From positions 1 to 54,020 of the IMG/VR virus record IMGVR_UViG_3300044691_000045: DNA of 54,020 bases; one strand, given 5' to 3'. A program made the position numbers and the translations under genes. Of the stretch, positions 13,299 to 38,670 are shown piece by piece. Below the pieces are notes generated by a model, which made no database searches, was not told the origin of the DNA, and was given only the letters and a program-made list of their open reading frames with translations. Source of the DNA: a virus. Its lineage: Duplodnaviria > Caudoviricetes. Position 1 is the first letter of the stretch. The number at the start of each line of letters is the position of its first letter.

Positions 13299-13334
13299 GT
13301 GTATCTCCTGTTTTGCAGGCTAGCACACAGACAC

Positions 13335-13361
13335 AAAAGGCGCATCATAAAGATGCGCCTT
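13335..13361 (-). terminator. Rho-independent terminator
   Basis: Stem AAGGCGCATC / GATGCGCCTT followed by Ts on the minus strand. Confidence 0.7.
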
Positions 13362-13383
13362 GCATGCAACCAAAAACTTGTGC

Positions 13384-13719
13384 TTATAGCGTGACACCAC
13401 CAGTAGCGGCGGCTGGGGTAGGCGTAGGCGTAGGCGTGAGTGCTGCGTTGTCAGCGGTAAGCAACTGCTGCAAGATCACGTCCACTGCCTGAATGTGGGC
13501 AACCTGCGCGGCAGTATCCGGAGTCTGCGGCCCTGCCAGCAACTTGGCAAGAATCGCAGCATTGCTGGTTTTGAGCGTAGCCACGTCGGTGTCTACAGTA
13601 CCCAATGCCTTGTCGATGTCGGTCAAATCCATGTTGACTGTTCTCCTCAAATCTTCGATAGAACTGCGGATGTCTGCAAGAGCCGTTAACACGTGATTTT
13701 GAAAACGGCGCTCATTCAT
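13384..13719 (-). CDS. Coiled-coil hypothetical protein with PT-repeat tail; second in-frame start at 13632
   Basis: Strong GAGGAG RBS before internal ATG 13632 (MDLTDIDK...); TPTPTPTP tail. Confidence 0.7.
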   Translation of the reverse strand: MNERRFQNHVLTALADIRSSIEDLRRTVNMDLTDIDKALGTVDTDVATLKTSNAAILAKLLAGPQTPDTAAQVAHIQAVDVILQQLLTADNAALTPTPTPTPAAATGGVTL

Positions 13720-13730
13720 AGCCTATAAAG

Positions 13731-14045
13731 CTAGTCGTCCAGCACGGCAGTGTCAAGTTTTTCTTCGTCATCTACCCACAAATAGAGCGTTTTTTTATCG
13801 CTAGATCGTTGGTAGAACAACTGTCCAACAAAAGGTGCGCCGTGTTTCTTTGTATGTGCGTTAATACGCTGTAGTAGGTAACCGGCTTCTTTTGTTGTCC
13901 CAACGTCAACCGCAATAGCTTGGTCCTTACCTACAGCTTTTGCCAGTGCAGTTAACAGTAGAGATGTGTACGAATTGCCGTTGTATTCATCTGCCGGTAT
14001 CTCGGAGCGCCGGACAGTAACAAAGCGCAACTCTCGGTTGCCCAT
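13731..14045 (-). CDS. Hypothetical protein, possibly DNA-binding
   Basis: GAGG RBS; fits the operon. Confidence 0.65.
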   Translation of the reverse strand: MGNRELRFVTVRRSEIPADEYNGNSYTSLLLTALAKAVGKDQAIAVDVGTTKEAGYLLQRINAHTKKHGAPFVGQLFYQRSSDKKTLYLWVDDEEKLDTAVLDD

Positions 14046-14063
14046 GCAAAGTACCTCGCTGCC

Positions 14064-14277
14064 AAAAAGTTAAACGGCGCGCGCCGGAGGCCAGTCCATC
14101 GCGCGCCGCTGTCCCTATGCTATATGGTCCTAAACTGCAACCAAAGGTGCGGAATGACTAACACGTCTCAGCGCACCCACAGCACAGGGATACTTTAGAG
14201 TTGCGCGGCAAGTCGAATTAGAGCATCGCCGCGCAACTGTTGCCCAAACATCGGCAACTCTTCCGGGGGAGGAAGGG
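14064..14277 (-). ncRNA. Candidate structured 3'UTR/sRNA ending in a terminator whose loop is antisense to the early-gene RBS
   Basis: Hairpins at 14260-14275, 14239-14258, 14199-14238, 14146-14177 and 14075-14108, then UUUAACUUUUU. Confidence 0.5.
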
Positions 14278-14866: not shown

Positions 14867-14895
14867 ATGCTACATGCTGGTATGCATGTTGTAAA
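14867..14895 (-). promoter_or_regulatory. Sigma70-like promoter
   Basis: Minus strand TTTACA-N17-TAGCAT upstream of ATG 14823. Confidence 0.5.
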
Positions 14896-15503: not shown

Positions 15504-15561
15504 GTGGCCTCCGACGGCTGTGATATGTCAGTGCAAATGCGTATCCAACATGAGGAGCAAA

Positions 15562-15840
15562 TTAGAGCATTGGCAGGCGAATTGGGCACCAAGACTTTGC
15601 ATTCGACACAGCGCCTGTATCCAACAGGGCACCAAGGGGTTTTTCGTACAACATGATCCATTCTTTTTTCTCCAGATGGTAAACATGACCGCTGGCTATA
15701 AAGGCCAACGTTGCTGCGGTTCGCGCCTGCGCCTGTGTAGCTTCCGGATCATGGTCAACGTATGGATTGTATGCGCCTGCTAGAGCCTGCGCAGCGTACG
15801 CCTGTGAGAGAAGCATATAGTGCTGCGTGTCGTGGCGCAT
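15562..15840 (-). CDS. Hypothetical protein
   Basis: ORF in operon orientation. Confidence 0.45.
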   Translation of the reverse strand: MRHDTQHYMLLSQAYAAQALAGAYNPYVDHDPEATQAQARTAATLAFIASGHVYHLEKKEWIMLYEKPLGALLDTGAVSNAKSWCPIRLPML

Positions 15841-15961
15841 AGCGTTTGCACTCCCAACGAACCGTGTAGGTAATGAGCCCGTAAATTGCTGTTGCTAGCA
15901 CTACCCACACCAGCAGAGACAGACCAAGAATTGCAAGATAGTGAACCACTAAAGGTGTCAT
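15755..15961 (-). CDS. Small membrane protein
   Basis: Long hydrophobic N-terminal segment; overlaps 15562..15840, so uncertain. Confidence 0.4.
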   Translation of the reverse strand: MTPLVVHYLAILGLSLLVWVVLATAIYGLITYTVRWECKRYAPRHAALYASLTGVRCAGSSRRIQSIR

Positions 15962-16072
15962 GCGCAGAAGAATGAACGCTTTGCGTGATGGCTGTCAATA
16001 GCTATTTTGATGCTCTAATTATAGCCTCCGCAAGACGCAAGTAGCATGCGCCTTACGCAAGCTACTGCAGTT

Positions 16073-16744
16073 CTATTCTGGTGCTTGTTCGGCAATTGGT
16101 TGGTACCCGCTATCCATCTTCACATCACGCGGATTGTTGTACGTGTCTGTTGTGGGTACATAGCGAGCATCGTAATGTTCTCTCTGGCTTTTATGCACAT
16201 CGTACAATGCACGTTCCAATTCAGCATTCTTATGCGCCAGAACATCGGCTCTGGTTTGTTCGGCGTGTTTCTCATCCGCCAATTCAAATGCACGCTTGGT
16301 TACGGTTTCCAGTTCTTTACGCACTATGTTGTAGCGATCATCGCGAATAAAGGCTTGTCGCCAGTAGCCTTCGCAGGCTGCTGTTTGCTTGTTGATTACC
16401 GCTTTCAGCTTGTCGCCAAGACTTGTACGCGATGCATGCGCTTCGCTGGCGTACTGCTCTGCAAAGGTATTGCGTTCTTTGAGCACGTCAATCAGTGTGC
16501 TGAGATACAGCACAATGCCTAGCAGAAGTCCGGCAAGGATCAAACCCAAAATCATGAAGACAAACGGCACGCTGCCGAACCCAATATCAATCGTGGTACC
16601 GCCGCTGTTGTGTGCCTGCTGCATCCAGTTAGCATCTACATTGCCTTGCACAATGCCTTCGTGGATAGAGTTGTAAATCGTGGTTTGTAACTTGTCAAGA
16701 AAAGCGTTGTTAAGCTGGATGTAACTTTCAACTGCTGTCTGCAT
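16073..16744 (-). CDS. Membrane-anchored coiled-coil protein
   Basis: CCGGAGGC RBS before ATG 16744; TM segment VPFVFMILGLILAGLLLGIVLYL; coiled-coil C-terminus. Confidence 0.7.
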   Translation of the reverse strand: MQTAVESYIQLNNAFLDKLQTTIYNSIHEGIVQGNVDANWMQQAHNSGGTTIDIGFGSVPFVFMILGLILAGLLLGIVLYLSTLIDVLKERNTFAEQYASEAHASRTSLGDKLKAVINKQTAACEGYWRQAFIRDDRYNIVRKELETVTKRAFELADEKHAEQTRADVLAHKNAELERALYDVHKSQREHYDARYVPTTDTYNNPRDVKMDSGYQPIAEQAPE

Positions 16745-17012
16745 TCGTGTTGCCTCCGGTTGATTGTAGTCGTTGTCGTTTCTTGGTTTCACGTGCTACG
16801 CGCGTATGATACGCATATAAGCCAAGTTGTAATCGAGTAGTGAATCCGGTTCTACGCAAAGATTCTAGTACGTGATTGCGTACAGTAAAGTTGCTCAGGT
16901 TCAGTAACAGTGCTATGTCTTTATCACAGTAACCGTAACTAAGCCAGAACATGACGCATCTCTGTGCTGGTGTTGGTGGCAATCGGGGGATGATTGGCGG
17001 TGTTAGTGTCAT
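16728..17012 (-). CDS. LuxR/GerE-type HTH regulator (no receiver or sensor domain)
   Basis: TPAQRCVMFWLSYGYCDKDIALLLNLSNFTVRNHV...RLQL. Confidence 0.8.
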   Translation of the reverse strand: MTLTPPIIPRLPPTPAQRCVMFWLSYGYCDKDIALLLNLSNFTVRNHVLESLRRTGFTTRLQLGLYAYHTRVARETKKRQRLQSTGGNTNADSS

Positions 17013-17206
17013 TGTGCATTCTTTACTGCGGTTGCTGCCTTGACCCAAGCACGCGACCGTGTAGAGCCTATCCCGGCAAGCGGTGTGCTGCCGTCATAGA
17101 TACAATACACAGCGACTAGCTTACCCACAAGTACATTGCACTTTGCACGTGGGTATATCTCGCGTACCACGATCTTGGCTTTGTCGGTTCGTTTGGTATA
17201 GGCCAC
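17009..17206 (-). CDS. Hypothetical protein (YP.A...AW..AA family)
   Basis: Coupled to neighbours; shares a motif with 17206..17511 and 19939..20334. Confidence 0.6.
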   Translation of the reverse strand: MAYTKRTDKAKIVVREIYPRAKCNVLVGKLVAVYCIYDGSTPLAGIGSTRSRAWVKAATAVKNAQ

Positions 17207-17511
17207 TACTTCTTTCCTTGTATCAGGTCACCGGCTGCCGCCTGCCATGCATCGTACTCGGATGCATGCTGGTACGTGATGACTGGCGATGCTTCATCAT
17301 CACGTTCTAGGATCATCCAGTATCCTATGCTGTCATTGTAGGCTACTGCGTTGGGGTACTCTTTCAGTACCTCAGCACGATTGCGGATTAGCTCACAGGT
17401 ACGTATGAAGTCCTGCGCTGCCTGTTCACTACCAGTTAAGCTGCGGCTGTAACGCACGAATGCTGCATCTACCATAGCCAGTGCCTTGTCTATAGGGTTG
17501 TCCTGCGTCAT
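17206..17511 (-). CDS. Hypothetical protein (YP.A...AW..AA family)
   Basis: VLKEYPNAVAY...SEYDAWQAAA. Confidence 0.6.
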   Translation of the reverse strand: MTQDNPIDKALAMVDAAFVRYSRSLTGSEQAAQDFIRTCELIRNRAEVLKEYPNAVAYNDSIGYWMILERDDEASPVITYQHASEYDAWQAAAGDLIQGKK

Positions 17512-17723
17512 GGTTTGGCCTCTGGTCTGTGTACCACGTTACCGTCTCTGGTACCTTGTTCACCTTTGCCGTGGCATGTGCTGCATTTCCAAGGATGCAT
17601 GCTGTTGATGAGTCCGCAGCCTTGACACGTCTTGCATGCGATGTAGCCTTGTACAGTGGCATAGCCTAGTGCGGCTGACATAGCTATGTAGTATGCGCGT
17701 TTCTCTGCTTGGTTGCGTGCCAT
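17508..17723 (-). CDS. Small zinc-finger protein (DnaJ-type CxxCxGxG repeats)
   Basis: CKTCQGCG...CSTCHGKG. Confidence 0.6.
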   Translation of the reverse strand: MARNQAEKRAYYIAMSAALGYATVQGYIACKTCQGCGLINSMHPWKCSTCHGKGEQGTRDGNVVHRPEAKP

Positions 17724-18775: not shown

Positions 18776-19021
18776 TCATGCTGTTCTGCCCACAACGATA
18801 GTTGTGCCATCTGCGCCCATGTACGCGCGGTAGGTATTGCCTGTTTCCTTTGACTTGCGGTAGCAGTACGCCTGAATGCCTGCGAGCATTGGCACACCGT
18901 TAGTGTAGGGAATCACGAACGATTGCCCAACAGCAAGCGCGTTCCAAGGATACTTGCCGGTGCGACCGCGTTTCTGCGCCAATTGCGTCACATCGTAATC
19001 GTGTACGGTATAATCTGCCAT
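18776..19021 (-). CDS. Putative DNA-binding protein (KYPW..L.VGQSF family)
   Basis: KRGRTGKYPWNALAVGQSFVIP; first gene of the leftward arm. Confidence 0.7.
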   Translation of the reverse strand: MADYTVHDYDVTQLAQKRGRTGKYPWNALAVGQSFVIPYTNGVPMLAGIQAYCYRKSKETGNTYRAYMGADGTTIVVGRTA

Positions 19022-19616: not shown

Positions 19617-19666
19617 AGACACAGTACCGTTATGCTTCAGAATCGCAGTACCGGAGGACTAGCAAG

Positions 19667-19900
19667 ATGCGCAACGTTAACCAAGTAGATTTTGCCGCAA
19701 TCACCAGCACAACGAAGTTTGCACATGACGCGGTAGTAACTGATGGGCGCATCTCCGTATCATTCACGATTCCTTACACGCGCACATGCTTCGATGTTGC
19801 AATCGATGGCACAGTCATAGGACGCGCGCACACCGTCAAAACAGCATTGGCACTAGTCAACACAGCGCGCAAGGCTATCCTCACATCTTGCGGCAAGTAA
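19667..19900 (+). CDS. Early hypothetical protein
   Basis: CCGGAGG RBS at 19651. Confidence 0.7.
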   Translation: MRNVNQVDFAAITSTTKFAHDAVVTDGRISVSFTIPYTRTCFDVAIDGTVIGRAHTVKTALALVNTARKAILTSCGK

Positions 19901-19938
19901 CATCACGCAATCTAATCCAACACCGGAGGCCGTTCTAT

Positions 19939-20334
19939 ATGTCGCTCACAATCGCAGGTTTCAACACTCCAGAGGAAGTAGTAAAGGCTGTCTATCCGAA
20001 GGCATACGCTTTCCTTTCAGACCGCACCGGCTATACGATCTATCCCACGCCTTATGATAAGGCTATTGGACGCTCCGTTGGTAGCGAAGCAGGCGCGTGG
20101 ATTGACGCAGCATCCAACATCCTGATAGACCAAGATCCGACCATCAAGGCAGCGCTTGACGCAGCACAACGCGCATCGAAAGGTAGCGAGTTGTCATTAA
20201 CGCTAATCGAGCATGCTATCGAGCATCTACCTGACTCCGACACAAGCGCAGTATCCGTTCTGCTCGAAGCGTATAAAGCTATCGGCCCACTAGGTCAAAC
20301 ACCTAGTTGGGAACGCTCGAAAGGTGGCCGCTAA
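19939..20334 (+). CDS. Early hypothetical protein
   Basis: CCGGAGGCC RBS at 19923 supports ATG 19939 over the ORF-track start. Confidence 0.7.
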   Translation: MSLTIAGFNTPEEVVKAVYPKAYAFLSDRTGYTIYPTPYDKAIGRSVGSEAGAWIDAASNILIDQDPTIKAALDAAQRASKGSELSLTLIEHAIEHLPDSDTSAVSVLLEAYKAIGPLGQTPSWERSKGGR

Positions 20335-20591
20335 TGGCGAAATCAGCGCGTTACGAAGTAGCCATAGATGCGAGCGCATTCAAGCTAGCGACTGTGGAAG
20401 TTGGCTGCCCTATACGCAAATTCAGTTACACCACGTTAGACCAAGCAATTAGTGTAGTGAACATCGCAAGGTTTCTCACTGGGCATGTGATGATTGGACG
20501 CGAATCAGGCGTGCCGCATACGCTAGCCGTGCATGACTCCGTACAGCTAGGCTATAACGGATTCAGCCTTACCATCACACGCGAGCGATAG
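20334..20591 (+). CDS. Early hypothetical protein
   Basis: TAATG coupling with the upstream gene (MAKSARYEV...). Confidence 0.6.
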   Translation: MAKSARYEVAIDASAFKLATVEVGCPIRKFSYTTLDQAISVVNIARFLTGHVMIGRESGVPHTLAVHDSVQLGYNGFSLTITRER

Positions 20592-20668
20592 CCGTTAGTG
20601 TTGCGCTGTATGCCCACCGCTGGCACTGTGGGCATATCGGAACACTATATAACACCGGAGGCCACACC

Positions 20669-20902
20669 ATGAACGCAGAGCGCCGCAAGCAACTCACGAA
20701 GCTAGTTGGGCAATTGGATGACATCAAGGGCGAGATTGAATCACTGAAAGACGAAGAACAAGACGCCTTTGACAACTTGCCAGAAGGCTTGCAACAGGCC
20801 GAACGCGGCCAACAGATGGAAGAGGCTGTCAGCAACCTAGACAATGCCGTCAGCAACCTAGACAGCGCGATTGACGATGTGAACAACGCAATAAACGAAT
20901 AA
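20669..20902 (+). CDS. Acidic helical-hairpin protein
   Basis: CCGGAGGCC RBS; MNAERRKQL...EEQDAFDNLPEGLQ; D/E-rich. Confidence 0.8.
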   Translation: MNAERRKQLTKLVGQLDDIKGEIESLKDEEQDAFDNLPEGLQQAERGQQMEEAVSNLDNAVSNLDSAIDDVNNAINE

Positions 20903-20966
20903 GGTTGCTGCCCACAGCGTTCGCTACGGTGAGCGCTGATGGCAACATCCAAGTACCGGAGGCCGT

Positions 20967-21173
20967 ATGTCACGTGAGTATAAGGTACTAGTTAACTACA
21001 CTTACAACGGTGTAGCTATATCCCAGTCACTGTACAGTGGACCGCACAAGAAACACGCAGATAATGCCTTTGTCAAAGCTGGCGTACTAGGCAATCACGG
21101 CATACTATCTAATTGCACTGTAACCTTTTACGATGGTTACCGCATGCGGCTAGACCTAACAAAAACGTACTAA
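20967..21173 (+). CDS. Early hypothetical protein
   Basis: CCGGAGGCC RBS at 20956. Confidence 0.65.
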   Translation: MSREYKVLVNYTYNGVAISQSLYSGPHKKHADNAFVKAGVLGNHGILSNCTVTFYDGYRMRLDLTKTY

Positions 21174-21207
21174 GACAGAAGCGCACGTCAACACCGGAGG
21201 CCAACCA

Positions 21208-21342
21208 ATGCGAATCACACCATGCACGTGCAATCTAGGCGCAGGAGCATGCAACAGACATCCGTTCTTTGGGCCGTTCCTTGCATATCGCCCGAAGCAT
21301 ACCTTTTCGATGTTCCACGGCTACATCTCGATTAGCTGGTAG
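21208..21342 (+). CDS. 44-aa Cys/His peptide (not in ORF track)
   Basis: CCGGAGGCC at 21194; MRITPCTCNLGAGACNRHPFFGPFLAYRPKHTFSMFHGYISISW. Confidence 0.55.
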   Translation: MRITPCTCNLGAGACNRHPFFGPFLAYRPKHTFSMFHGYISISW

Positions 21343-21506
21343 TCATGGTAACGCACACATTGGTTACCACTGTGCAAGCGAATTGGCGTGCAACTTTGCA
21401 TTATTTGCTTGCGTTTATCCTACGTTATTCATTACTGTAAAGACTCCATCGTTACACATACGGTGATCGGCACCTACAACCGACAGCAACAAAGAAAGGT
21501 TACAAA

Positions 21507-22505
21507 ATGGCACACAACATTGTTAACAACATGATCAGCTACAAAGGCGCAACGCCTTGGCATGGTTTGGGCGTGAACGTGGAAGAGACTGCAACGGGCG
21601 CAGAGATGCTGGTTAAAGCTGGCATGAACTGGCAAGTACAGCGCCGCGCTATTGCAATGCGCGGTGATCTAACGAACCCAGCAACGGATGCCACGAAGAT
21701 GCTAAAAGAACCACTCGCAGGCTATCGCGCAATTGTCCGCTCAGACAACGACCATGTGTTCCAAGTATCAACCGATAGGTACCAAATTGTACAAAACGCA
21801 GAAGTGGTAGAGATTTTCCGCGAATACTGCGAAGCTGGTCATGCCACGATGGAAACAGTGGGAGCGCTTGAGGGCGGTAACAAAGTGTGGGCATTAGCAC
21901 GGTTGAATGGTGGCTCTACTGCTACACTCGCAGGCAATGACGAACTACGCGGCTATATGATGTTCGCCACGTCCCACGATGGCAGCCTGCGTACGATTGC
22001 GAAGCCAACGCAGGTAAGGGTAGTCTGCTGGAATACGCTGTCTATCGCGTTGGGCGATGGCGTGCCGCAATTCAGGCTCAAGCATTCAGCAAAGTTTACT
22101 GATGCGCGCAAAGAAGAGGCACGCGTTATGATGGGAATGGCATCGCAGCAGGTAGCCAAGACCAACGCAGCAGCAGACGCACTCTCTCACGTCAACATAG
22201 ACCATTCAGATTGGCTAAACTTCATGGACAGACTTATGGGCGAAACCGTACTAGACCCAAAGACTGCGCAGCTATCCCGCATGGCCGCTGACATCCAAGA
22301 CGCTACGCTTACCTCTCCCGGCTCTACACTGACAAGCGCTAAGGGTACCCTATGGGGCGCAGTAAACGGTGTGACGTTCTACACAGACCATATGCGTGGA
22401 CGCACACAAGATACGCGCCTATCCTCTGCGTGGTTTGGTGACTCTGACTTACTCAAACGTACCGCCATGAACACAGCGCTAGAGATGGCTGGTGTGAGCA
22501 TCTAA
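21507..22505 (+). CDS. DUF932 / phage-plasmid protein (TIGR03299-like)
   Basis: MAH...PWHGLG, YQIVQN, ETVGAL.GG..VW, SHDGS, RVVCWNTL, GTLWGAVNGVT.Y.DH. Confidence 0.88.
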   Translation: MAHNIVNNMISYKGATPWHGLGVNVEETATGAEMLVKAGMNWQVQRRAIAMRGDLTNPATDATKMLKEPLAGYRAIVRSDNDHVFQVSTDRYQIVQNAEVVEIFREYCEAGHATMETVGALEGGNKVWALARLNGGSTATLAGNDELRGYMMFATSHDGSLRTIAKPTQVRVVCWNTLSIALGDGVPQFRLKHSAKFTDARKEEARVMMGMASQQVAKTNAAADALSHVNIDHSDWLNFMDRLMGETVLDPKTAQLSRMAADIQDATLTSPGSTLTSAKGTLWGAVNGVTFYTDHMRGRTQDTRLSSAWFGDSDLLKRTAMNTALEMAGVSI

Positions 22506-22594
22506 CAGACGATGGCAGCGGTATGCTGCTATGTGTGCGCAACATCCCCCGGTTAGCGCACACATAGAAGCATACAGAGTCAATCGGAGGCCGT

Positions 22595-22936
22595 ATGGCA
22601 TTCATGCAACATCAGGTAACGGAACGTCAGCAGTGGTTACAGGTAGAGACTAGGCAAGGTACGGTGTACCTGCCATGCAACGAATTAGGCTTGCATTTTG
22701 CCGATGCTACTGGCGAGGATGACGCGGTACTTGACGCGCACATCGCCACAGTGCAGCAGTATTGCGAGGGCAGCGTTATAAGCTGGTCAACCATTACCGG
22801 CTATGGTGCGCGCACTAGTGCTCCGGGGTATCTGGATTGCACAGAATGGGCCGTCTATCCTACGGCTGCTCAGGCTCAAGCATATCTCGATGAATACTAT
22901 CCAGAGGATGATGACAGCGACAGCGACAGCGACTAA
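22595..22936 (+). CDS. Acidic early protein (SAPGYLDCTEW motif)
   Basis: CGGAGGCC RBS; acidic tail EDDDSDSDSD. Confidence 0.75.
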   Translation: MAFMQHQVTERQQWLQVETRQGTVYLPCNELGLHFADATGEDDAVLDAHIATVQQYCEGSVISWSTITGYGARTSAPGYLDCTEWAVYPTAAQAQAYLDEYYPEDDDSDSDSD

Positions 22937-22998
22937 GGCTTGCTGTGTTCCGTACACTGCCCACATGGACAGTGTGCGGAATACCGGAGGCTAACAAC

Positions 22999-23286
22999 AT
23001 GGATCGTACATACGGGCGTGGAATGCTGTATTTAAATAACAGTGGTTCGCGCTGGATTACTGCCGATATGCGCTTTGTTCTGGTCATGCCAGACGGTATG
23101 CGCAAAGTACGCACTGCGCGCTGCTATGAATCCTTTGGCAACTTTGCTGTGACCATTTACCGTATCGGCTCTAAGCAGTTTGCCGGACTAGCGAAAGACT
23201 GCAATGGATACGAAACACACGCAGAGGGCGTAACGGGCGATGATGCCTTGCCGCATATCTTCCACGAAAAATCGCGCGTGTACTAG
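22999..23286 (+). CDS. Early hypothetical protein
   Basis: CCGGAGGC RBS at 22984 before ATG 22999. Confidence 0.7.
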   Translation: MDRTYGRGMLYLNNSGSRWITADMRFVLVMPDGMRKVRTARCYESFGNFAVTIYRIGSKQFAGLAKDCNGYETHAEGVTGDDALPHIFHEKSRVY

Positions 23287-23344
23287 CTTGCTGTACTGCG
23301 GACAGCGCTCCCGGTGAGCGCTGCTCGAAGTACCGGAGGCCGTA

Positions 23345-23530
23345 ATGCCAGTTGATAGGCAATTCAGAGACTTGAGTATTGGGCAGTCATTTGATTTTAT
23401 TTCGCCCATCGCTACGCACAACAGCTTTTACCTTACCTGCACAAAGATCAGCGCGCGCCAGTACCGTGACGAACGCGGCACCGTACACACTGTCGGCAGT
23501 GTTAAGGCAAACGTATACCACGTTAAATAA
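23345..23530 (+). CDS. Early small protein (F.DL.IGQSF motif)
   Basis: CCGGAGGCC RBS at 23333. Confidence 0.7.
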   Translation: MPVDRQFRDLSIGQSFDFISPIATHNSFYLTCTKISARQYRDERGTVHTVGSVKANVYHVK

Positions 23531-23640
23531 CGCACTAGCTGCCAATCTAAGCGCCAGCGATGCCCACATAGACCATGTGGGCATACTTGCCTGTACCGAA
23601 CGCAGCAGCACACCGTAGAAGCGCAACAAAGGGATAACGA

Positions 23641-23853
23641 ATGGAGACAGTAACCTTGACAGAGCACAAGCGCGTTATACAACAGCTAATCGAAGATAGG
23701 CAGGAGACGCAGATACGTGCAGCACTGGTACACATTACCCGTATGCACGCACATAGCTATCTGGCGATAGACGCGGTACACGATGGCGATGCAGCGACCG
23801 CACGCCTGCACGCCCATCTAGCCGTAACGGAGGCACGGCAGATTCGCCCATGA
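23641..23853 (+). CDS. Early hypothetical protein
   Basis: AAGGGA RBS. Confidence 0.55.
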   Translation: METVTLTEHKRVIQQLIEDRQETQIRAALVHITRMHAHSYLAIDAVHDGDAATARLHAHLAVTEARQIRP

Positions 23854-24091
23854 CTAGGCATGCTGCTACGGAGCGCCAGCAGCACGCCTGCGCCTGCAAA
23901 TCGATGGCGCTCTGGTACCTGCCAAAGTGTCTCAGAGGATGCTCGTTATAACGACTAATCGCCCGATTAACGCGAATCCGCAATTGCATATGCTACGCTA
24001 TGCACACTCATCTGTGCATACTTATTTGCATAGGTTGATATGGCTTGTGGGAGGCAGGCGCAGACTTAGGGGTAGGTTTTCCGGGCAAGGT

Positions 24092-26371
24092 TTACGATGC
24101 TTCGAGGCCGTATACTTTTGGGTTTTGCAAAGCTAATTCTGTACTTTTTTCGTCATCTGTAGTACCTACGCTATCCAGCGCTGTAGCATCTACTAACTGA
24201 TAACATTTGCCGCCGCGTGGATTAGGGTGAGCGCAGGCAGCAATTATACCGGAATCAACCGCCGAATCTATGCAGATTTTTAGCATGCGCGCTGTATCCA
24301 TTCTAAATGATTGCAGCCGGTTAACCGACCGTAACATCTCTCTATACGAGATAAGCAACTGCTCTCTATACGGCGTATTGCCGGGACTATATATTCTGCT
24401 GCTAAACCAAGTATTGAGCACGCGCATAAAGTCTGCATTAGCACGCTGGTTACCTACACCTATCTCACCGCGAACAAAACGCGAACTCATGCATTCCATG
24501 CCGCGTATATCCATAGAGATAGCCCAACGCAGCATATCGCCAGTTATGACCGGAGGTTGCATGGTATCTGTGTGCTCATCCCAAGAGCACCCTATGGCTA
24601 ACAAAGCCGCTAACCGCATTACTTTAACATGGGTACGATTGTAGAGTTGCGCGATAGGATCACTGCCGTGCTTGACATTTTGCCGCCGTGCTTTGGCCCG
24701 GTACTCCTCATTTAGCTGTTCCGCTTCCTCATCAAACGTAACCGCCTGCGGTACACCACAATGCTCTAGTGCATCACGCCAATGCAGCATGCGCAGCAGC
24801 ATATCGGATAACTTCTTTGATACCTTAACTGAGCCAGCATGTTTATTGTATGTCTCGCTAGCGTGCAACTTCTCAATTGTTAAGAACCGTGCAACAAAGC
24901 CTTCGCCTAGCATCTCATTCGACATAGCACCGAAGAATGTCTCAGGCGTGCTCATACCGATAACTGACAGCGCCGGACGATCCACACCCGTATTGCTATT
25001 GTCTTTCTTACTGTAAACTTGGTCACCTGTTTTAGCCATCGAATCAACACCAAACAGTGTAAGCAAGTCTTGTCTTAGTTGCTTCATAGTAGAGCTAACT
25101 CGCACACTGTTTAGCTGTTCTAAGAAGTGGCCGAACTCATCCATCTTGTACAGCATGCATGGTGTTTCATTCATGCGCTTCATCAGCGCTTGTCCACCAG
25201 ATAGGCTGCCCACACTGAAGTTAGGAGCGTAGCCGGGATTAGTGTTGCCGATGCTGTCCTTTAGCCGCTGTGCTGTATCCCGCACTAGTGACGTGATACC
25301 TGTGCTGATTGCTTCTTTGCCTGCACCTGTGGGCGCGACCAAGACCGTGTATAGGTTTAGTGGCATGCCATTGACAGAGAACGCGCGAGCGAATGCGCCA
25401 GACATAAACGAGATAGCACCGGCAATTGCTGTTTCTTGTAGTGGGTAAGGCGAGCGCTCATAGATGAATGACGCAATATCGCCCATCATACCTATAGGCT
25501 TGTCTATGTGTATTGGCGCTGCTATTGCCAAACGCGATTGCTGTAGTACGGTATGATTGTTTTCGATTGTAGTTACATCGATAGGCTGTAACTTTTGATC
25601 GAATGCCTTATCTATCGTACGCTGTATGTAGTCCTCACGGTTGGCTTTGCTGCGCCTGCCAAGCATGGACATACGAAAGATGCGTGCAACCTGCTGTTTG
25701 TTGTCAGTGTAGAATGCAATGATGTTCATTAGTGCCTGATCAGCGCGGGAAGCGTCACCGTTGTACGCTGTCAAGTCACCGGACCACAACTGAGAAAATG
25801 TCAAACCATTAGTAGCATTAGCTGCGCGATTTAGAATGGTGTCATCTTCATCTATCTGCGGCCCATCTGTAACAATAGTGGCTGTGTGTTTCTTATAGCT
25901 ACTCCACAACCAATCAAGCATAGCCTGCCCATCTACTGCCTCATGGTGACCGTTCACAGCATCGCCGGTTACAGTCATGTAGTGGTTGCGCGTGTATACC
26001 TCGATACCCTCTTTTTTTGCAACGATGTTCTCAGGTAGTTTGCCGCGTACCCAAATGTGCAAGCCTTTACCAGATGGCGAGCGCTCACTATAAGATTTGA
26101 TGTGGGTATATATCTCTACCTGATTAGCGAGTATGCGAGGATCATCCGTAGCATCGAAGTCAATGCAACTGTACGGCGTTTCCGGCGTGATAACAAAACC
26201 CATCAGATACTCTGGTCTTCCCAGAATAGCGAGCATCGCTTCCTTGTGCGAACTCCAGTAGATAGAGTTAGACACGTCGCACGTTAGAAGCGTACGGGCA
26301 CACAACGGTATTTTATCGGATCGTTTTGCAACAACCCATTGCGGTATTCCCGCAATCTCTTCCAATAGCAT
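24092..26371 (-). CDS. Primase-polymerase (AEP/NrS-1-like) fused to a DUF3987-type helicase
   Basis: CIDFD, ERSPSGKGLHIW, IEVY, DASRADQAL; Walker A-like APTGAGKE and Walker B-like DEFG. Confidence 0.85.
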   Translation of the reverse strand: MLLEEIAGIPQWVVAKRSDKIPLCARTLLTCDVSNSIYWSSHKEAMLAILGRPEYLMGFVITPETPYSCIDFDATDDPRILANQVEIYTHIKSYSERSPSGKGLHIWVRGKLPENIVAKKEGIEVYTRNHYMTVTGDAVNGHHEAVDGQAMLDWLWSSYKKHTATIVTDGPQIDEDDTILNRAANATNGLTFSQLWSGDLTAYNGDASRADQALMNIIAFYTDNKQQVARIFRMSMLGRRSKANREDYIQRTIDKAFDQKLQPIDVTTIENNHTVLQQSRLAIAAPIHIDKPIGMMGDIASFIYERSPYPLQETAIAGAISFMSGAFARAFSVNGMPLNLYTVLVAPTGAGKEAISTGITSLVRDTAQRLKDSIGNTNPGYAPNFSVGSLSGGQALMKRMNETPCMLYKMDEFGHFLEQLNSVRVSSTMKQLRQDLLTLFGVDSMAKTGDQVYSKKDNSNTGVDRPALSVIGMSTPETFFGAMSNEMLGEGFVARFLTIEKLHASETYNKHAGSVKVSKKLSDMLLRMLHWRDALEHCGVPQAVTFDEEAEQLNEEYRAKARRQNVKHGSDPIAQLYNRTHVKVMRLAALLAIGCSWDEHTDTMQPPVITGDMLRWAISMDIRGMECMSSRFVRGEIGVGNQRANADFMRVLNTWFSSRIYSPGNTPYREQLLISYREMLRSVNRLQSFRMDTARMLKICIDSAVDSGIIAACAHPNPRGGKCYQLVDATALDSVGTTDDEKSTELALQNPKVYGLEAS

Positions 26372-26398
26372 TTATGGCCCTATCGAAGTGTGCCGCTA

Positions 26399-26572
26399 TT
26401 ACGCAGCGTTGTTGGCGTCTTGTATAGCCATTCGTACTACTTCGGTTGCTTTCATCGGCTTGTTCAAATCACGTTCATAGTGCGCCCGTAGCTGCATGTA
26501 CGCAGCGTAATCATCGCCGCGCAGAACTACATGCAAAATTAATTCGGGATCGCTTTTGTGTTTGGCGCTCAT
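26399..26572 (-). CDS. Small putative DNA-binding regulator (ribbon-helix-helix-like)
   Basis: 57 aa; beta-strand LILHVVL then helices ending ATEVVRMAI; sits at the divergent promoter. Confidence 0.5.
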   Translation of the reverse strand: MSAKHKSDPELILHVVLRGDDYAAYMQLRAHYERDLNKPMKATEVVRMAIQDANNAA

Positions 26573-26599
26573 GAGACATACTCTACACGCAAAACCAAG

Positions 26600-26650
26600 A
26601 AAAATATAAAAATATTTTGTATTGACATCATACGCCTGAATCGGTACGCT
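26600..26650 (+). promoter_or_regulatory. Sigma70 promoter with AT-rich UP element for the replication operon
   Basis: TTGACA (26622-26627)-N17-TACGCT (26645-26650). Confidence 0.7.
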
Positions 26651-26680
26651 GTCTCCAGAAGAAAAATCTACGGAGGCCAC

Positions 26681-27079
26681 ATGGAAGAGACGCAAAAAGC
26701 ATTGCTAGCACAGTGGACAGAAGCAGAGCAAAACTGCGCGATGTGGAAAGCAAAAGAGCTACGCTTGCGCACAGAAGTAATCGCGCAGTTCTTTGATACC
26801 AGCAAGGATCAGGGTACAGAACACTTTGAACTCGGCAACGGTTACAAGTTGACCGCTGTTAAGAAGCTGAACTATACGCTCACCAATAAGAATGGTGAGA
26901 CTGTGGCAGCACTGCAAGCACTGCGCCCGGATACCGCGCAGCGGCTTGTTTCGTGGTCGCCTACGCTGTCCAAGACGGAGTACGATCGGCTGTCTTCCAA
27001 CGAAAAGATGTTACTCACCAACGCGCTAACTATCAAGCCTGCTACACCGTCGCTTGAGTTAGTGGAACCAAAGAAGTAA
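26681..27079 (+). CDS. Phage hypothetical protein of the replication module
   Basis: CGGAGGCC RBS before ATG 26681; ELGNGYKL...IKPATPSLE. Confidence 0.75.
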   Translation: MEETQKALLAQWTEAEQNCAMWKAKELRLRTEVIAQFFDTSKDQGTEHFELGNGYKLTAVKKLNYTLTNKNGETVAALQALRPDTAQRLVSWSPTLSKTEYDRLSSNEKMLLTNALTIKPATPSLELVEPKK

Positions 27080-27171
27080 TGCCGTTCTACGGCGGTTACT
27101 TCTTTGGTTTGCTGACTGGCTTTATCATCGGCGCTGGTGTTGTTATCTTATTGTTGTACAAAAGGAATTAA
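27079..27171 (+). CDS. 30-aa single-TM peptide (not in ORF track)
   Basis: TAATG coupling; MPFYGGYFFGLLTGFIIGAGVVILLLYKRN. Confidence 0.5.
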   Translation: MPFYGGYFFGLLTGFIIGAGVVILLLYKRN

Positions 27172-27173
27172 GC

Positions 27174-27374
27174 GTGGAACAACACCGGCACGTATGGGAC
27201 AGCGAGCATGGCTTCTATCGGTTCAAAAAATCGGTAGGACTGAAGTGTTCCTGTGGTTTAATGGCATTCTATTTCCCGTCAGTTGGCTTGCCGTATTTTA
27301 GCGATCACCAGCTAAAGAATCCAGACTACGTACCAACACCGCAGCACGCAAAGCAGGAGACACATGCGCGTTAA
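27174..27374 (+). CDS. Hypothetical protein (HxH...CxCG)
   Basis: AAGGA RBS; fits the operon. Confidence 0.55.
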   Translation: MEQHRHVWDSEHGFYRFKKSVGLKCSCGLMAFYFPSVGLPYFSDHQLKNPDYVPTPQHAKQETHAR

Positions 27375-27675
27375 CATCTACGCAGAGGAGTTGACAGACC
27401 GCGTGGAACTTATCACGAAAGTGATAGAAGGACAGACCTATACGGCTGTGCGCTTTTACATGGAATTGCCGGTAACGGTGACAGTTCCTAACTACGCTGC
27501 AAACGATATTGCTGCGTCAACCAAAACGCAAAACGTGCGCGGTCCATTCATGCACCGTCCGGGTGATGATGATTCAGCGGCGGTTACCTTTTGGGGCAAG
27601 CACGATTTGCAACGTATACTGCGCAAGGCTCTTGACAAATTAGAGGAGCATTACGCAACCAAGGAAATAGCTTGA
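27364..27675 (+). CDS. Hypothetical protein
   Basis: AGGAG RBS. Confidence 0.7.
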   Translation: MRVNIYAEELTDRVELITKVIEGQTYTAVRFYMELPVTVTVPNYAANDIAASTKTQNVRGPFMHRPGDDDSAAVTFWGKHDLQRILRKALDKLEEHYATKEIA

Positions 27676-28340
27676 ACTCTTCTGATCTACGTCCGGCTGG
27701 TGACTTTGCGCGGCATTACTTTGTTAAGATGCTGCTTTTCGGAGGACCGGGGAGCGGTAAAACTCCGCTGGTAACTACAGCACCCGCGCCTGTACTATTT
27801 GCGGCTGAAACTGGACTAGCTACCATGCGCGGCTCTAATGTGCCCACATATCCTATTCTGAATACAGCCACGGCACGCGCTGCAATTGATTGGATCACCA
27901 GCGATGCGAAGGACGCGGCACAGTTCCAAACAGTGTTTGTTGACTCTGGGACACAGATGGCACAGAACGCGCTAGACCATTGGTTGCCGCTGCGCTCTGA
28001 TGGACGCAAAGCGTATGGAGATATGGACAAAGAGATGTATCCTTTGTTTAATCGCCTGTACTATCAGAAGAATAAGCACGTAGTTATCGTTGCAAAAGAA
28101 TCAATCGATGGGGAAGAAAACCGCATTCCTATCTTTCCCGGCAAGAGCATGAATAGTTGGGTTCCGCACTTGTTTGATCTTATCGCGCATCTAGGCATTT
28201 ACTCTGCTGGTGCATGGCGCGGTTTGGCATTGCGTTGTCATCCTGAGTTTGAAAAGGTGAAAGTACGCGCACGATACCGTACACTTGACCCATTAGAGCC
28301 GCCTGATTTATCAGCGTTGTTTCGTAAAGCAATGCTGTAA
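27672..28340 (+). CDS. AAA_24 / Sak4-like ATPase
   Basis: GGPGSGKT Walker A; VFVDSGT Walker B. Confidence 0.85.
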   Translation: MNSSDLRPAGDFARHYFVKMLLFGGPGSGKTPLVTTAPAPVLFAAETGLATMRGSNVPTYPILNTATARAAIDWITSDAKDAAQFQTVFVDSGTQMAQNALDHWLPLRSDGRKAYGDMDKEMYPLFNRLYYQKNKHVVIVAKESIDGEENRIPIFPGKSMNSWVPHLFDLIAHLGIYSAGAWRGLALRCHPEFEKVKVRARYRTLDPLEPPDLSALFRKAML

Positions 28341-28372
28341 ACATTCACACTTTAACCGGAGGATTCTGGCAA

Positions 28373-29143
28373 ATGCAATTCAACTTCGATGCACGCATTA
28401 TCGAACCAAACACAGGCGGCAGTGGTGGCGATGATATTCCCACCGGCACCTATCACGTGATGATCGACAACATAGAGCGCAAGCCAGTTACCGACAAACC
28501 TACTTGCGCCTATCTCGAAGTATCAATGGTTGTACTTGATCCGGGGCCGTACAAAGGCTTGCACGTGATTGATCGGCTGAATATGTGGAATGATTCAGCC
28601 AAAGCACAGGACATTGCGCACAAGACGTTTTCGGCGCTGTGCCACGTGACCGGCATTCTGGTACTGCAAGATACACAGCAGCTTTACAACATTCCGTTTG
28701 CTGTGAAGATCGTACAGACGGAACAGCCGAATCCGGACAACCCAAACACGCCGTACAAGAATACCAATGTTAAGAAGTACATGGACGTTAACGAAAACGA
28801 TGCAAAGCATGTGGGCGCAGGTCCGCAGCGCAGCGCACCGCAACCGGCAGCGCCTACGCCAGCACCGCAACAGGCGGCATGGCAGCAGCCAACGCAAGCG
28901 CCAGTAGGCAACGGGGCCGCTGCTGGCTCGGCATGGCAGCAGTCACCAGCGGGGCAGGTTGCGCAGCCGCAACAGGCACCTGTACAGCAGCAACCTACCG
29001 GCTTTGTTGCTGGTCCTCCATCATTCCAGCAGCCAGTACCGCAACAGCAGCAGTTGCCAGTACAAACGCAGGCACCTGTGCAGAGTGGTTGGCAAGCGCC
29101 AGCGCAGCAGGCACCCGCTGCGCAAGCGCCTTGGCAGAAGTAG
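28373..29143 (+). CDS. DUF669 family SSB-like protein with Q/P/A-rich tail
   Basis: IPTGTYHVMI, DRLNMWN; low-complexity tail ending APWQK. Confidence 0.8.
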   Translation: MQFNFDARIIEPNTGGSGGDDIPTGTYHVMIDNIERKPVTDKPTCAYLEVSMVVLDPGPYKGLHVIDRLNMWNDSAKAQDIAHKTFSALCHVTGILVLQDTQQLYNIPFAVKIVQTEQPNPDNPNTPYKNTNVKKYMDVNENDAKHVGAGPQRSAPQPAAPTPAPQQAAWQQPTQAPVGNGAAAGSAWQQSPAGQVAQPQQAPVQQQPTGFVAGPPSFQQPVPQQQQLPVQTQAPVQSGWQAPAQQAPAAQAPWQK

Positions 29144-29156
29144 TCTAAACTCCCTA

Positions 29157-29193
29157 ACCGGCGTACGCTCAGTGCGTGCGCCGTTTTCTTTCT
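29157..29193 (+). terminator. Rho-independent terminator
   Basis: CGGCGTACGC-loop-GCGTGCGCCG then TTTTCTTTCTT. Confidence 0.65.
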
Positions 29194-29206
29194 TCGGAGG
29201 CCAACT

Positions 29207-35926: not shown

Positions 35927-38670
35927 GCAGGATCGTACCCCGGAGGCCCACCGCCGTGACTGATAGGTGCTGGTGGCTCGCCGGGGCCGCTGCCGCCCTG
36001 TACTGGCACTGGAGGCGCAGCGTAGACCGGCGTAAAGCCAACGTAGCCAAAGCCAGCGCTGTTGCCGAGGTATCCAGCGGGGCCGTAACCGCCGCCATCT
36101 GGTGTAATCACACCGGAAGTCAAATCTGTATCATGCGCGTAGTAGCGCGCGTCGTAATTGACGGCAGTAACCGTGAAAGTGTTGCTGCCTGCCTTTTTCT
36201 TTTCTGTCACCAAGAAAGGCGTTGCGCGCTGATCGGTAGACGCGACAATTTGGTAGGTAGTAGCTGCGTACTTATCGCTCTCAAATACCAGCGGCACAGC
36301 CGGAGGACGCGACAGCACTACATGCTTTGCGTCAATCAATCCTGTTAGCGGAATTGCCTCTACCGTCAAGTCATAATGCTGCAAGAATATCGTATAGGAA
36401 GCATCGCCAAACGTAGCTCTGCGCGACAATCCAATAGTCAAACCAGACTGGCTAACAATCTCGCCATCTTGCGTATCAGGACGTGTGTTGTCAGCAACTA
36501 GAATACGGTTGCTAACTACCAAGAGTGCGCCTTCGGATGTGCATGAGAACTGCACATTCGTATTCTGATATAACAGCTTTTGATATAGCCGCCAACCATT
36601 AAATGTTGCCTGCGCTTTGTTGCGCACGCCGATGCTCTTTACTTTCTTTGGATTGGTAGCGCTTTGATCCGGAGGAAAGTACAGCGTGCGGGGCGTATCT
36701 ACGTTGGGATAGGACGGCGCATTAGGATCAACAAAATCGTACTCTATGCCGTCATTGTTGCCGATAGCTCCAAACGTAACAGTGCGCGTTTCGCTGTTAG
36801 GTAGCTTATTGCGATGGTTAAACAACAGTGAGGAGTTTGCTGTCTGCCCCTCGAAAGACAAGCCTATGACATTACCCCGACGAAACGCTATGCAGTTACA
36901 TGCGGCTGCGATGTCTGTGGCTATTTCCTCAAATGACATATTGGCGCTGTCAAAGGTATAGCAAAATTCTACAGATAATCCGGTACCGAAGTTTGCGCTT
37001 GCGGCATTGATAGCTGCGTAAATTCCATCTACGTCTACCTCTTCTTTAGTTCTGTTGCCTATGCGTGGATCGAGCGCAACAAAGCAGAAGATAGCCGCCG
37101 CATTGTTCTGCGGTACCAACGCTGTAGAGAATACACCGCCGCCTTGATAAGCCGGTATGTTACGCGTAACTAGGCAGTTGAACTTACGCTCTTTGACGCT
37201 GGTAGCTGCATTAGTAGCAACGGTAATAGCCTGCACAATGGTGACGTTGCCGAAGTCTGTACCCGCGAATGGAGACATTGCATAAAACTCTGTCCACTGC
37301 ACAGAATCAACAGTAGTTATATTACCTGTAGCATTGTCTCTGTTATTGATTCTGTGGGCACGCACAGAGATAGGACCGGCATAGGGCAGTACACACTTGA
37401 TAGTAATGCCGCGTGCTGCTGTGGTGTTAGCTGATCCTTGCATAGTCGCTGAGAACAAGCGCTCTGATCCAACCGGGCTGCCGCTAGAGTCTACAGCCGT
37501 AACGCCTACTTCTAAGTCTACGTTTACCCTATGCTGGTTATTGCTTGAGTCTGTGTAATACAGACCATTGGGCGCACTGAAGTTACACCAAACCTCTGTA
37601 GCATCGCCAACGTTTAGAACAAAAGAGTCTGTCCAGTTAGTACCGCTGCCCTCTAAGAGCGCTTGTGTAGCGTTCGATTGACCGCTAGGGAAGGCGTTAA
37701 CAGCGTTCCAGCCTGCATTCACATCCTGCGCATTAGATAGCGTAAGTGTGTTGCTGGTCACGTCTAGTATAGTGTACAGGCCGTCTACGTTCGCTGTTAT
37801 GCCGCTGTGGTTTGCATCGTAACAGTTGCCGTTACTTATCTGTAATTGATGCGTTGTTTGCGGCGTAGATGCTTGGAAAAAATCAGTGAAATCAAATAAG
37901 CCATCAGAACAAGTAATAACGCCTAATCCTGAGAATACGATGTCGTTATTCCCATGCACGCGGTTCGCGTTAGGGGCCGTAATGTACTGCCCATTAACTG
38001 CTGTGCATGCCCTTGCCGCTCGTATAATATCTGGCGTGCCGGTACCGATAGTAAGCTGCGGTACAGAACCGGGTTTGTTCGGAGATGTAAACGGAGCGTA
38101 GAAAAATGCCGAAGCGCCGGTTTCTTCCTGTATAGGTGTTGTGTCGTCTTTCGCGTCATATATCGTATAACTCCCGCGTCCCAAACACATATTCGCAGTT
38201 TCTAACTGTTGATTGCTGGCGTATTGTTTGTAGGGAAGACCAATCAAATCAGGTACCGCACGCACTGTGCCCACAATGTCAGGTATGCGCTCGTTTGGCC
38301 GCTGTTGATTGCTGCGATCAGCAAGCGAATTATTTGGCGAAATAGAGGAAGGATGCGGCTTCGACGGTCGCAGTAAGAACGATAAGCCAATAGAGATAGC
38401 AGAGATGATGATGGCAATGATAATGCCGATAGTAAACTCGGGGTAGATCACAATAAAGAACTCACCCGTTAGTTGTTCTATGGCGTCAACATCGTCTTTA
38501 GTCACTGGCGTTATATCGCAACTCATAGCGACGTATTGATGGTAGAGCCGCGCGCCAGTAGGCCATTCCTCGAAGTGCTTTAATATCTCTGCACGTATGT
38601 CACCATCGAACGTAAATATTTCCCGTTCTTCATTATCGGCTACAGTGCGGCAGATAGTTAAAGTATTCAA
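35923..38670 (-). CDS. Central tail tip / host-specificity (J-like) protein
   Basis: RIPDIVGTVRAVPDL, LFNHRNKLP, TAVNYDARYY; follows the NlpC/P60 gene. Confidence 0.85.
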   Translation of the reverse strand: MNTLTICRTVADNEEREIFTFDGDIRAEILKHFEEWPTGARLYHQYVAMSCDITPVTKDDVDAIEQLTGEFFIVIYPEFTIGIIIAIIISAISIGLSFLLRPSKPHPSSISPNNSLADRSNQQRPNERIPDIVGTVRAVPDLIGLPYKQYASNQQLETANMCLGRGSYTIYDAKDDTTPIQEETGASAFFYAPFTSPNKPGSVPQLTIGTGTPDIIRAARACTAVNGQYITAPNANRVHGNNDIVFSGLGVITCSDGLFDFTDFFQASTPQTTHQLQISNGNCYDANHSGITANVDGLYTILDVTSNTLTLSNAQDVNAGWNAVNAFPSGQSNATQALLEGSGTNWTDSFVLNVGDATEVWCNFSAPNGLYYTDSSNNQHRVNVDLEVGVTAVDSSGSPVGSERLFSATMQGSANTTAARGITIKCVLPYAGPISVRAHRINNRDNATGNITTVDSVQWTEFYAMSPFAGTDFGNVTIVQAITVATNAATSVKERKFNCLVTRNIPAYQGGGVFSTALVPQNNAAAIFCFVALDPRIGNRTKEEVDVDGIYAAINAASANFGTGLSVEFCYTFDSANMSFEEIATDIAAACNCIAFRRGNVIGLSFEGQTANSSLLFNHRNKLPNSETRTVTFGAIGNNDGIEYDFVDPNAPSYPNVDTPRTLYFPPDQSATNPKKVKSIGVRNKAQATFNGWRLYQKLLYQNTNVQFSCTSEGALLVVSNRILVADNTRPDTQDGEIVSQSGLTIGLSRRATFGDASYTIFLQHYDLTVEAIPLTGLIDAKHVVLSRPPAVPLVFESDKYAATTYQIVASTDQRATPFLVTEKKKAGSNTFTVTAVNYDARYYAHDTDLTSGVITPDGGGYGPAGYLGNSAGFGYVGFTPVYAAPPVPVQGGSGPGEPPAPISHGGGPPGYDPA

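Follow-up and report, generated by a model that had tools for sequence, protein, structure and literature searches.

A predicted hairpin behind a phage DUF7303 gene carries the exact complement of a start-site motif shared by early and replication genes

The shut-off of early genes in phages is known to be carried out by proteins, such as RegA and RegB of T4. In the Firmicutes, small RNAs with C-rich loops, such as RNAIII of Staphylococcus aureus, bear anti-Shine-Dalgarno (anti-SD) pyrimidines in hairpin tops, including the top of the terminator hairpin, and act on several target messages. The c4 RNA of phages P1 and P7 (Rfam family C4), which arises from a leader by processing, is described as pairing through its loop sequences with the region of the ribosome-binding site (RBS) and as blocking translation; its target is a single operon (ant/icd), which it controls for immunity (PMC12197685). 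RegB of T4 is reported to cleave at GGAG within the start regions of early genes, for which a longer conserved context is required (PMC1702504).

The closest parallel for the locus considered here comes from the Cluster K mycobacteriophages, for which a paper of 2011 described a 13-bp start-associated sequence (SAS) that contains the SD sequence and is found at a distance of 3-7 bp ahead of non-structural gene starts. About half of the SAS were reported to have inverted repeats upstream, and it was left open whether an RNA or a protein binds the motif; papers of 2024 and 2025 still call their role unknown. We located the opposite-orientation SAS of phage Anaya at 59870-59882, where it occupies the 10-nt loop of a GC hairpin on the transcribed strand, within a 385-nt spacer (z -5.96). 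This Anaya-type element consists of two hairpins and is conserved in 133 Mycobacterium phage records; in an alignment of ten such elements the loop is identical in seven, and compensatory change is seen in 6 of the 36 predicted pairs. Adephagia has the element in the spacer between genes 92 and 93, where late transcription appears to start according to the published RNA-seq study (PMC11373665). The loop is degenerate in three Amginevirus phages, among them Amohnition, which keeps 17 canonical SAS and has four mismatches in the loop. Subclusters K2 and K3 keep the SAS without such a hairpin, as judged from copies within 2 mismatches; neither Pixie (18 SAS) nor ZoeJ (12 SAS) carries an anti-SAS sequence at up to 2 mismatches, an ordinary SAS of a leftward gene apart. 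Among the matches listed in our literature search, one paper mentions both the SAS and antisense, the latter in another sense, and none joins the SAS with an antisense RNA, although the supplements of the SAS studies may list the inverted sites.

The window analysed here, the whole stretch of 54,020 bp, is a complete virus record with direct terminal repeats from an uncultured soil phage. Its minus-strand genes run from position 1 to about 18.8 kb; a block of small plus-strand genes occupies 19.6-23.9 kb, and a plus-strand replication block, with AAA_24, DUF669, helicase and family A polymerase genes, occupies 26.7-35.9 kb. Within the minus-strand region a structured non-coding spacer of 232 nt extends from the stop of a DUF7303 gene to the ATG, at 14045, of a 104-aa ORF that has no match in Pfam or PHROG (Table 1). 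RusA and a LuxR-type gene precede the DUF7303 gene and tail-fibre-like genes come after the 104-aa ORF, and the terminal hairpin of the spacer stands where the early-left genes give way to the tail-fibre block. A tRNA scan and an Rfam scan of the window, the latter at gathering score, gave no matches, the best sub-threshold Rfam match being Ms1 (10.5 bits against 162 needed, E 7.2). The sequencing runs found to contain the phage were two soil DNA runs, one of them probably the source of the record, and no RNA run; the contigs are identical, without variants. In the region 13299-14045 a sigma-70-type promoter fits neither into the 30 nt past the hairpin at 14073-14110 nor into the spacer past the terminator at 13337-13361, so that the tail-fibre block may rely on read-through or antitermination.

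The gene ahead of the spacer had been taken for a DNA-binding gene, a label that is unproven. Its product is a DUF7303 protein of phrog_7597; its AF2 model reaches a pLDDT of 80.5, and it has neither a Foldseek match in the PDB at E<=0.001 nor a PDB sequence match. With VIA-align, only the N-terminal 69 residues gave weak winged-helix-like matches, the best of which (Z 5.0) lies below the tool's own trust level, and no paper naming DUF7303 was found in our literature search.

The original prediction had placed stacked hairpins after this gene, and folding bears this out: the spacer comprises five hairpin domains and reaches a minimum free energy (MFE) of -106.5 kcal/mol (236 nt folded) at a z of -5.21, with 0 of 200 shuffles folding as well. 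The C-rich UCCCCC loop foreseen for the first hairpin is present in the predicted fold. So is the final stem, with its arms at 14075-14083 and 14100-14108 and the letters AUGGACUGGCCUCCGG between them on the minus strand. These letters had been described as a 16-nt loop; their number is right, but they are not open, since a 4-bp helix closing a hexaloop is predicted within them, by which the CCUCC core is paired. In the partition function (U)GGA pairs with UCC(G) with values of about 0.9-1.0, so that only the hexaloop CUGGCC stays open, and UCCG of the inner helix is paired at about 0.6-1.0. Within GGCCUCCGG, GGCC alone is unpaired, and the predicted cost of opening this 9-mer is 6.5 kcal/mol. 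The terminal hairpin piece folds at -26.7 kcal/mol, with an outer GC stem of 9 bp (11 bp with A-U and G-U) and 4 inner bp; in the output of the repeat finder its arms measure 14 nt, contain 2 mismatches and are separated by 6 nt. Of the U tract said to follow the stem, a U-rich run is indeed there, but it is interrupted (UUUAACUUUUU). This hairpin was passed over by both a simple terminator scan and our own detector, for which the rule on loop length was mainly responsible; a genome-wide listing of hairpins was too noisy to use. The CUGG of the hexaloop fits the YUNR loop motif of natural antisense RNAs.

Table 1. Features of the window bearing on the spacer behind the DUF7303 gene and on the start-site motif (positions in window numbering)
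Feature	Position	Strand	Basis or remark
Promoter-like site TTTACA-17-TAGCAT before the DUF7303 gene	14867..14895	-	consensus match only, 9/12
DUF7303 gene, 181 aa	14278..14823	-	PF23978, E 3.9e-37; phrog_7597, unknown function
Hairpin 1, CUUCC/GGAAG, loop UCCCCC	14260..14275	-	MFE structures
Hairpin 2, GUUGCC/GGCAAC	14239..14258	-	predicted fold
Hairpin 3, perfect 11-bp stem, large loop with AUGCUCUAAUU	14199..14238	-	inverted repeat, 100% complementary
Branched hairpin domain 4	14112..14190	-	MFE = centroid
CATATAGCAT, second exact copy of the DUF7303 -10 block; possible weak promoter P2	14117..14126	-	sequence match
Terminal GC hairpin: outer stem, 1x1 mismatch, inner helix UGGA/UCCG, hexaloop CUGGCC	14073..14110	-	fold and repeat finder
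Inverted copy of the start-associated 9-mer, GGCCUCCGG on the minus-strand RNA	14084..14092	+	exact motif search
Interrupted U tract UUUAACUUUUU	14062..14072	-	sequence
Next ORF, 104 aa	13731..14045	-	ATG 30 nt past the hairpin; no room for a promoter
Ordinary short-loop terminator, two genes downstream	13337..13361	-	terminator scan
Three one-mismatch RBS copies: 15506-15514, 16751-16759, 17517-17525	15506..17525 (span)	-	motif search
Five one-mismatch RBS copies: 19651, 22584, 22984, 26670, 29194	19651..29202 (span)	+	motif search
Exact CCGGAGGCC, RBS of the gene starting at 19939	19923..19931	+	motif search
Exact CCGGAGGCC, RBS of the gene starting at 20669	20655..20663	+	14/16 match with the hairpin top
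Exact CCGGAGGCC, RBS of the gene starting at 20967	20956..20964	+	motif search
Exact CCGGAGGCC, RBS of the ORF starting at 21208	21194..21202	+	motif search
Exact CCGGAGGCC, RBS of the gene starting at 23345	23333..23341	+	motif search
Cassette spacers	20592-20668, 20903-20966, 22506-22594, 22937-22998, 23287-23344, 29144-29206		

The motif to which the hairpin top corresponds, CCGGAGGCC, occurs in seven exact copies in the window, all on the plus strand, against 0.20 expected, and 0 of 100 shuffles reach seven. Five of the seven serve small plus-strand genes as ribosome-binding sites, with 4-9 nt separating them from the ATG; the other two exact copies are the one in the hairpin and one at 35940. 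A search allowing one mismatch yielded 22 matches (5.3 expected), which by our reading divide into 13 RBS, one hairpin copy, one ambiguous copy at 35940 and seven elsewhere. The 13 motif genes (5 exact and 8 one-mismatch) have spacers of 4-9 nt and belong to the early, replication and early-left blocks; late genes have varied AGGAG/GGAG sites. An RBS-defined gene class of the kind supposed at the outset exists, and it is made up mostly of small early and replication genes. The motif of the class is longer than the 9-mer and can be written as Y-A-CCGGAGGCC-R, with A[A/G][C/T]A conserved ahead of it and a purine following GGAGGCC in 9 of 9 RBS copies. These flanks presumably cannot pair with the usual 16S rRNA tail, a typical tail being assumed for the host.

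Hairpins ahead of the motif, read by eye, are present in the spacers at 20592, 20903, 22506, 22937, 23287 and 29144, and they share no consensus among those tested. Nearly every spacer of the plus-strand early block shows the same order, a hairpin followed by A[A/G][C/T]A-CCGGAGGCC and then by the start codon; these cassette spacers are reminiscent of the extended SAS in Cluster K phages and of the processing sites that T7 has between its early genes. The ambiguous copy, at 35940-35948, coincides with Gly-Pro-Pro-Gly codons of a 915-aa minus-strand ORF, 15 nt ahead of its stop. We considered it as a second regulator and ruled this out, as it is unstructured (z -0.32) and encodes Gly-Pro-Pro-Gly; because it is explained by the codons of that ORF, it indicates that stray copies of the 9-mer do occur. 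The same copy is followed by a GTG-started plus-strand ORF of 130 aa, antisense to the 915-aa gene.

As GGCCUCCGG in the hairpin top is the exact complement of CCGGAGGCC, the original prediction that this top complements the RBS motif of early genes is correct, exactly at five plus-strand genes and with one mismatch at eight more, and the 14/16 match that it gave for the start region at 20669 was found as described. The match reaches 10 nt for every member of the class, since the purine after GGAGGCC faces a loop U. When the start regions of the phage were ranked by pairing with the 16-nt apex, 15 of 84 formed duplexes at -18 kcal/mol or better, well above the outcome for shuffled apexes of the same composition (mean 1.29, maximum 13 start regions; 0 of 500 reach 15). 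Cut-offs of -12 and -14 did not discriminate, and -18 kcal/mol was used. Once the costs of opening are deducted, 16 sites retain net energies of -4 to -14 kcal/mol. The complementarity is specific, beyond chance and energetically feasible. We estimate the probability that a given 9-mer falls by chance in some hairpin top of one genome at about 1e-3, and because a scan of very many phage genomes meets chance cases, the match alone does not prove function. The Y-A conserved ahead of the motif has no counterpart in the hairpin, which points to at least one other cause of the conservation of the motif.

These properties make the motif class of the window an analogue of the Cluster K SAS, not a member. 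In both, an asymmetric motif with an SD core, and with flanks that 16S rRNA presumably cannot pair, stands 3-9 nt before the starts of some of the non-structural genes, many copies seem to be preceded directly by inverted repeats or hairpins, which in the window were read by eye, and, in the Anaya-type phages as in the window phage, one lone copy of opposite sense lies away from gene starts in a hairpin loop. The two differ in that their sequences are unrelated (CCGGAGGCC in the window, GGGATAGGAGCCC as the SAS consensus), as are the phages and hosts; the window motif serves genes on both strands, and its lone copy lies on the DNA strand of the main class, inside an oppositely transcribed block. 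The start-tag class of the window can be regarded as a second, unrelated example of start-associated sequences. With c4 the locus shares a phage RNA loop complementary to a ribosome-binding region, whereas the window RNA would have many dispersed targets and a terminator hairpin, and has no Rfam match. RNAs of the RNAIII type show no homology to it and present UCCC in open loops, whereas in the window the CCUCC core is paired and GGCC alone is in the loop. The system of T4 RegB (PMC1702504) resembles it in that a class of early messages is marked by GGAG in a longer start context and is switched off together, but there the effector is a protein and there is no RNA partner.

The relatives of the locus proved to be distant. 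Among 50,697 phage records there was no DNA match, near or distant. DUF7303 relatives are at most 51% identical in IMG/VR (24 loci) and at most 52% in JGI metagenomes (21 loci, besides a 22-residue piece at 77% whose spacer is unrelated), and the GTDB genomes gave one DUF7303 match, at 30%; across the four collections no relative exceeded about 52% protein identity. The DUF932 gene of the phage has one relative, at 36%, without the motif. We examined 46 loci, of which one was too short and eight were duplicates, leaving 37 non-identical relatives. In blastn searches of the spacer against all DUF7303 loci the conserved gene end alone matched. A canonical hairpin with a T run, usually followed by a promoter-like site, starts 20-49 nt after the DUF7303 stop in 28 of the 37; the terminal hairpin of the window is thus in the position of a terminator, at the same place after the same gene. 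In the relatives the terminator loops are short (CTTAATAC, CATTGC and the like), the T run is strong and a promoter-like site comes directly behind it. Anti-SD sequences are absent there, 0 of the 37 having CCTCC within 150 nt downstream of the DUF7303 stop. Their ribosome sites are of the AAGGAG type among the matches listed (up to 14 per locus). Compared with these distant relatives, the anti-motif top, about 170 nt of extra hairpins before the terminal one and the lack of a downstream promoter are peculiar to the window phage. At least five relatives have, at 35-60 nt past the end of the DUF7303 gene, a terminator whose loop, CTTAATAC or CATTGC, is constant while the stem varies (AAAGCCCGGC versus GAACCCCGCC), with a TTGACA box 17 nt upstream of the TAATAC of the loop; this suggests that the loop is read by something.

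The best explanation of the locus, to which we give an even chance, is a plain terminator or attenuator in which the motif match is idle. By this account 14062-14277 would be the folded non-coding tail of the minus-strand DUF7303 transcription unit, and the hairpin at 14073-14110 with its U-rich run would act as the intrinsic terminator or attenuator of that unit; the genes just downstream, having no room for a promoter of their own, would be fed by read-through, and the inverted motif copy would have no function in trans, being either a chance match or the leftover of a copied start region. The GC-rich stem with its short hexaloop and the U-rich run behind it, placed at the end of a unit that has a promoter-like site directly ahead of the DUF7303 gene, the equivalent terminator in 28 of 37 relatives and the mere 30 nt from the hairpin to the next ATG all fit such a role. 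The idleness of the match is in keeping with the absence of CCTCC from the 37 relatives, the pairing of the CCUCC core in the predicted hairpin, the stray 9-mer at 35940 and our estimate of about 1e-3 per genome, by which a chance 9-mer in a hairpin top is expected now and then across many phages. It is harder to reconcile with a specified 9-mer that is expected 0.2 times genome-wide and yet sits in a hairpin top, where its pairing is 10 nt long, with an inner helix and hexaloop that termination does not need and that the relatives' terminators lack, with a U tract weaker than theirs, and with the recurrence of the same design in an unrelated phage group, Cluster K. A trans-acting role is a serious rival, backed by the specificity of the match, its position and the independent analogue, though we would place it short of an even chance. 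What we tentatively envisage under it is an RNA that, at the onset of late expression, occludes the RBS of some 10-13 genes of the early and replication sets: the hairpin would persist either at the 3' end of the DUF7303 message, as a stable remnant, or in the form of a short separate RNA, the GGCC of its hexaloop would nucleate on the GGCC of the Y-A-CCGGAGGCC-R start regions, and pairing would spread to 9-10 bp by opening the inner helix. The exact 9-mer complement, extended to 14/16 for one target, the 15 of 84 start regions that no shuffled apex equalled in 500 trials, the favourable net energies, the purine after the motif in 9 of 9 RBS copies and the place of the hairpin at the early/late border argue for such an RNA, as do the lone inverted SAS of Anaya in the loop of a conserved hairpin, the placement of its Adephagia counterpart where late transcription reportedly starts (PMC11373665) and the precedent of c4, whose loop sequences block an RBS (PMC12197685). 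Weighing against it are the lack of an RNA run among those found to contain the phage, its standing as a singleton in four collections, the 0 of 37 distant relatives with an anti-SD sequence after the gene, the sequestered core with its opening cost of 6.5 kcal/mol, the unmatched Y-A, the retention of SAS in Pixie and ZoeJ without an anti-SAS copy and in Amohnition (17 canonical copies) beside a loop with 4 mismatches, and the need for one RNA to compete with ribosomes on many messages. The wider proposition, that one RNA made at the early/late border silences about 10-13 early and replication genes through its hairpin tip and that the same anti-SAS design also works, in the late-leader spacer, in the Anaya-type Cluster K phages, we consider less likely than not. 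If it were true, an RNA recognising a whole start-site class would be a different and very compact timing device, and the anti-SAS design would explain at least part of the SAS puzzle open since 2011; it is this link that gives the finding its value, as an idea testable in culturable M. smegmatis phages for which RNA-seq and engineering tools exist.

Two further readings of the hairpin were considered. CATNTAGCAT, the -10 block of the DUF7303 promoter-like site, recurs exactly at 7 nt ahead of the hairpin, so that a weak promoter with TAGCAT (14122-14117) as its -10 element could fire about 7 nt before it. The late message downstream could then begin with the hairpin at its 5' end, or the hairpin could form, together with the U run, a roughly 48-nt RNA. 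It might then serve as a stabiliser or attenuator of the late block, a role that can be combined with that of a terminator or of an anti-start-site RNA. CATNTAGCAT is found exactly only at 14117-14126 and 14867-14876 in the 54 kb, both times on the minus strand and with CTTT at the same upstream distance, the downstream genes are without a promoter of their own, and the analogous hairpin of Adephagia is placed where late transcription is reported to start (PMC11373665). Set against this, the -35 element matches in only 2-3 of 6 positions, the promoter scan lists no site there, one-mismatch copies of CATNTAGCAT are not enriched (16 found, 21 expected) and the pattern was picked after the match had been seen, so that we judge a leader hairpin or tiny RNA gene improbable. 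Still more doubtful, and in our view very improbable, is that a protein reads the motif class, be it a nuclease or repressor like RegB or RegA or a DNA-binding factor, the hairpin copy then being a relic of an inverted start region or a site for the protein. The behaviour of T4 RegB (PMC1702504) would supply a precedent for this; the conservation of A[A/G][C/T]A ahead of the motif, beyond the part that the hairpin mirrors, the hairpins ahead of many motif copies and the resemblance of the plus strand of the hairpin top to a start region in which ATC replaces ATG would also fit. Yet no RegB or RegA homologue appeared among the 39 ORFs scanned against Pfam or PHROGs, most of which had no match, and a relic is unlikely to lie exactly between perfect 9-bp arms. 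An arrangement like that of lambda Q, pR' and the 6S leader was rejected, as the spacer has no promoter-like site and DUF7303 has no Pfam match to Q; the likeness is confined to the order RusA, gene, spacer.

Several smaller features of the spacer and its surroundings were noted. A boxA-like UGCUCUAA in hairpin 3 was dropped, two mismatches being expected by chance at its length, and TTTGGTTGCA, common to this spacer and the next, was set aside since 10-mer matches of such a kind are expected. An 81-aa minus-strand ORF at 18776-19021 is a weak paralogue of the C-terminal domain of DUF7303 (29% identity over 77 residues, pairwise E 2e-6). Finally, ATGCTCTAATT is present in three exact copies within 2 kb of the early-left region, at 14216-14226 (-), 15560-15570 (-) and 16010-16020 (+), the first of them in the loop of hairpin 3; an exact 11-mer would be expected far less than once, and this sequence may be an operator half-site.
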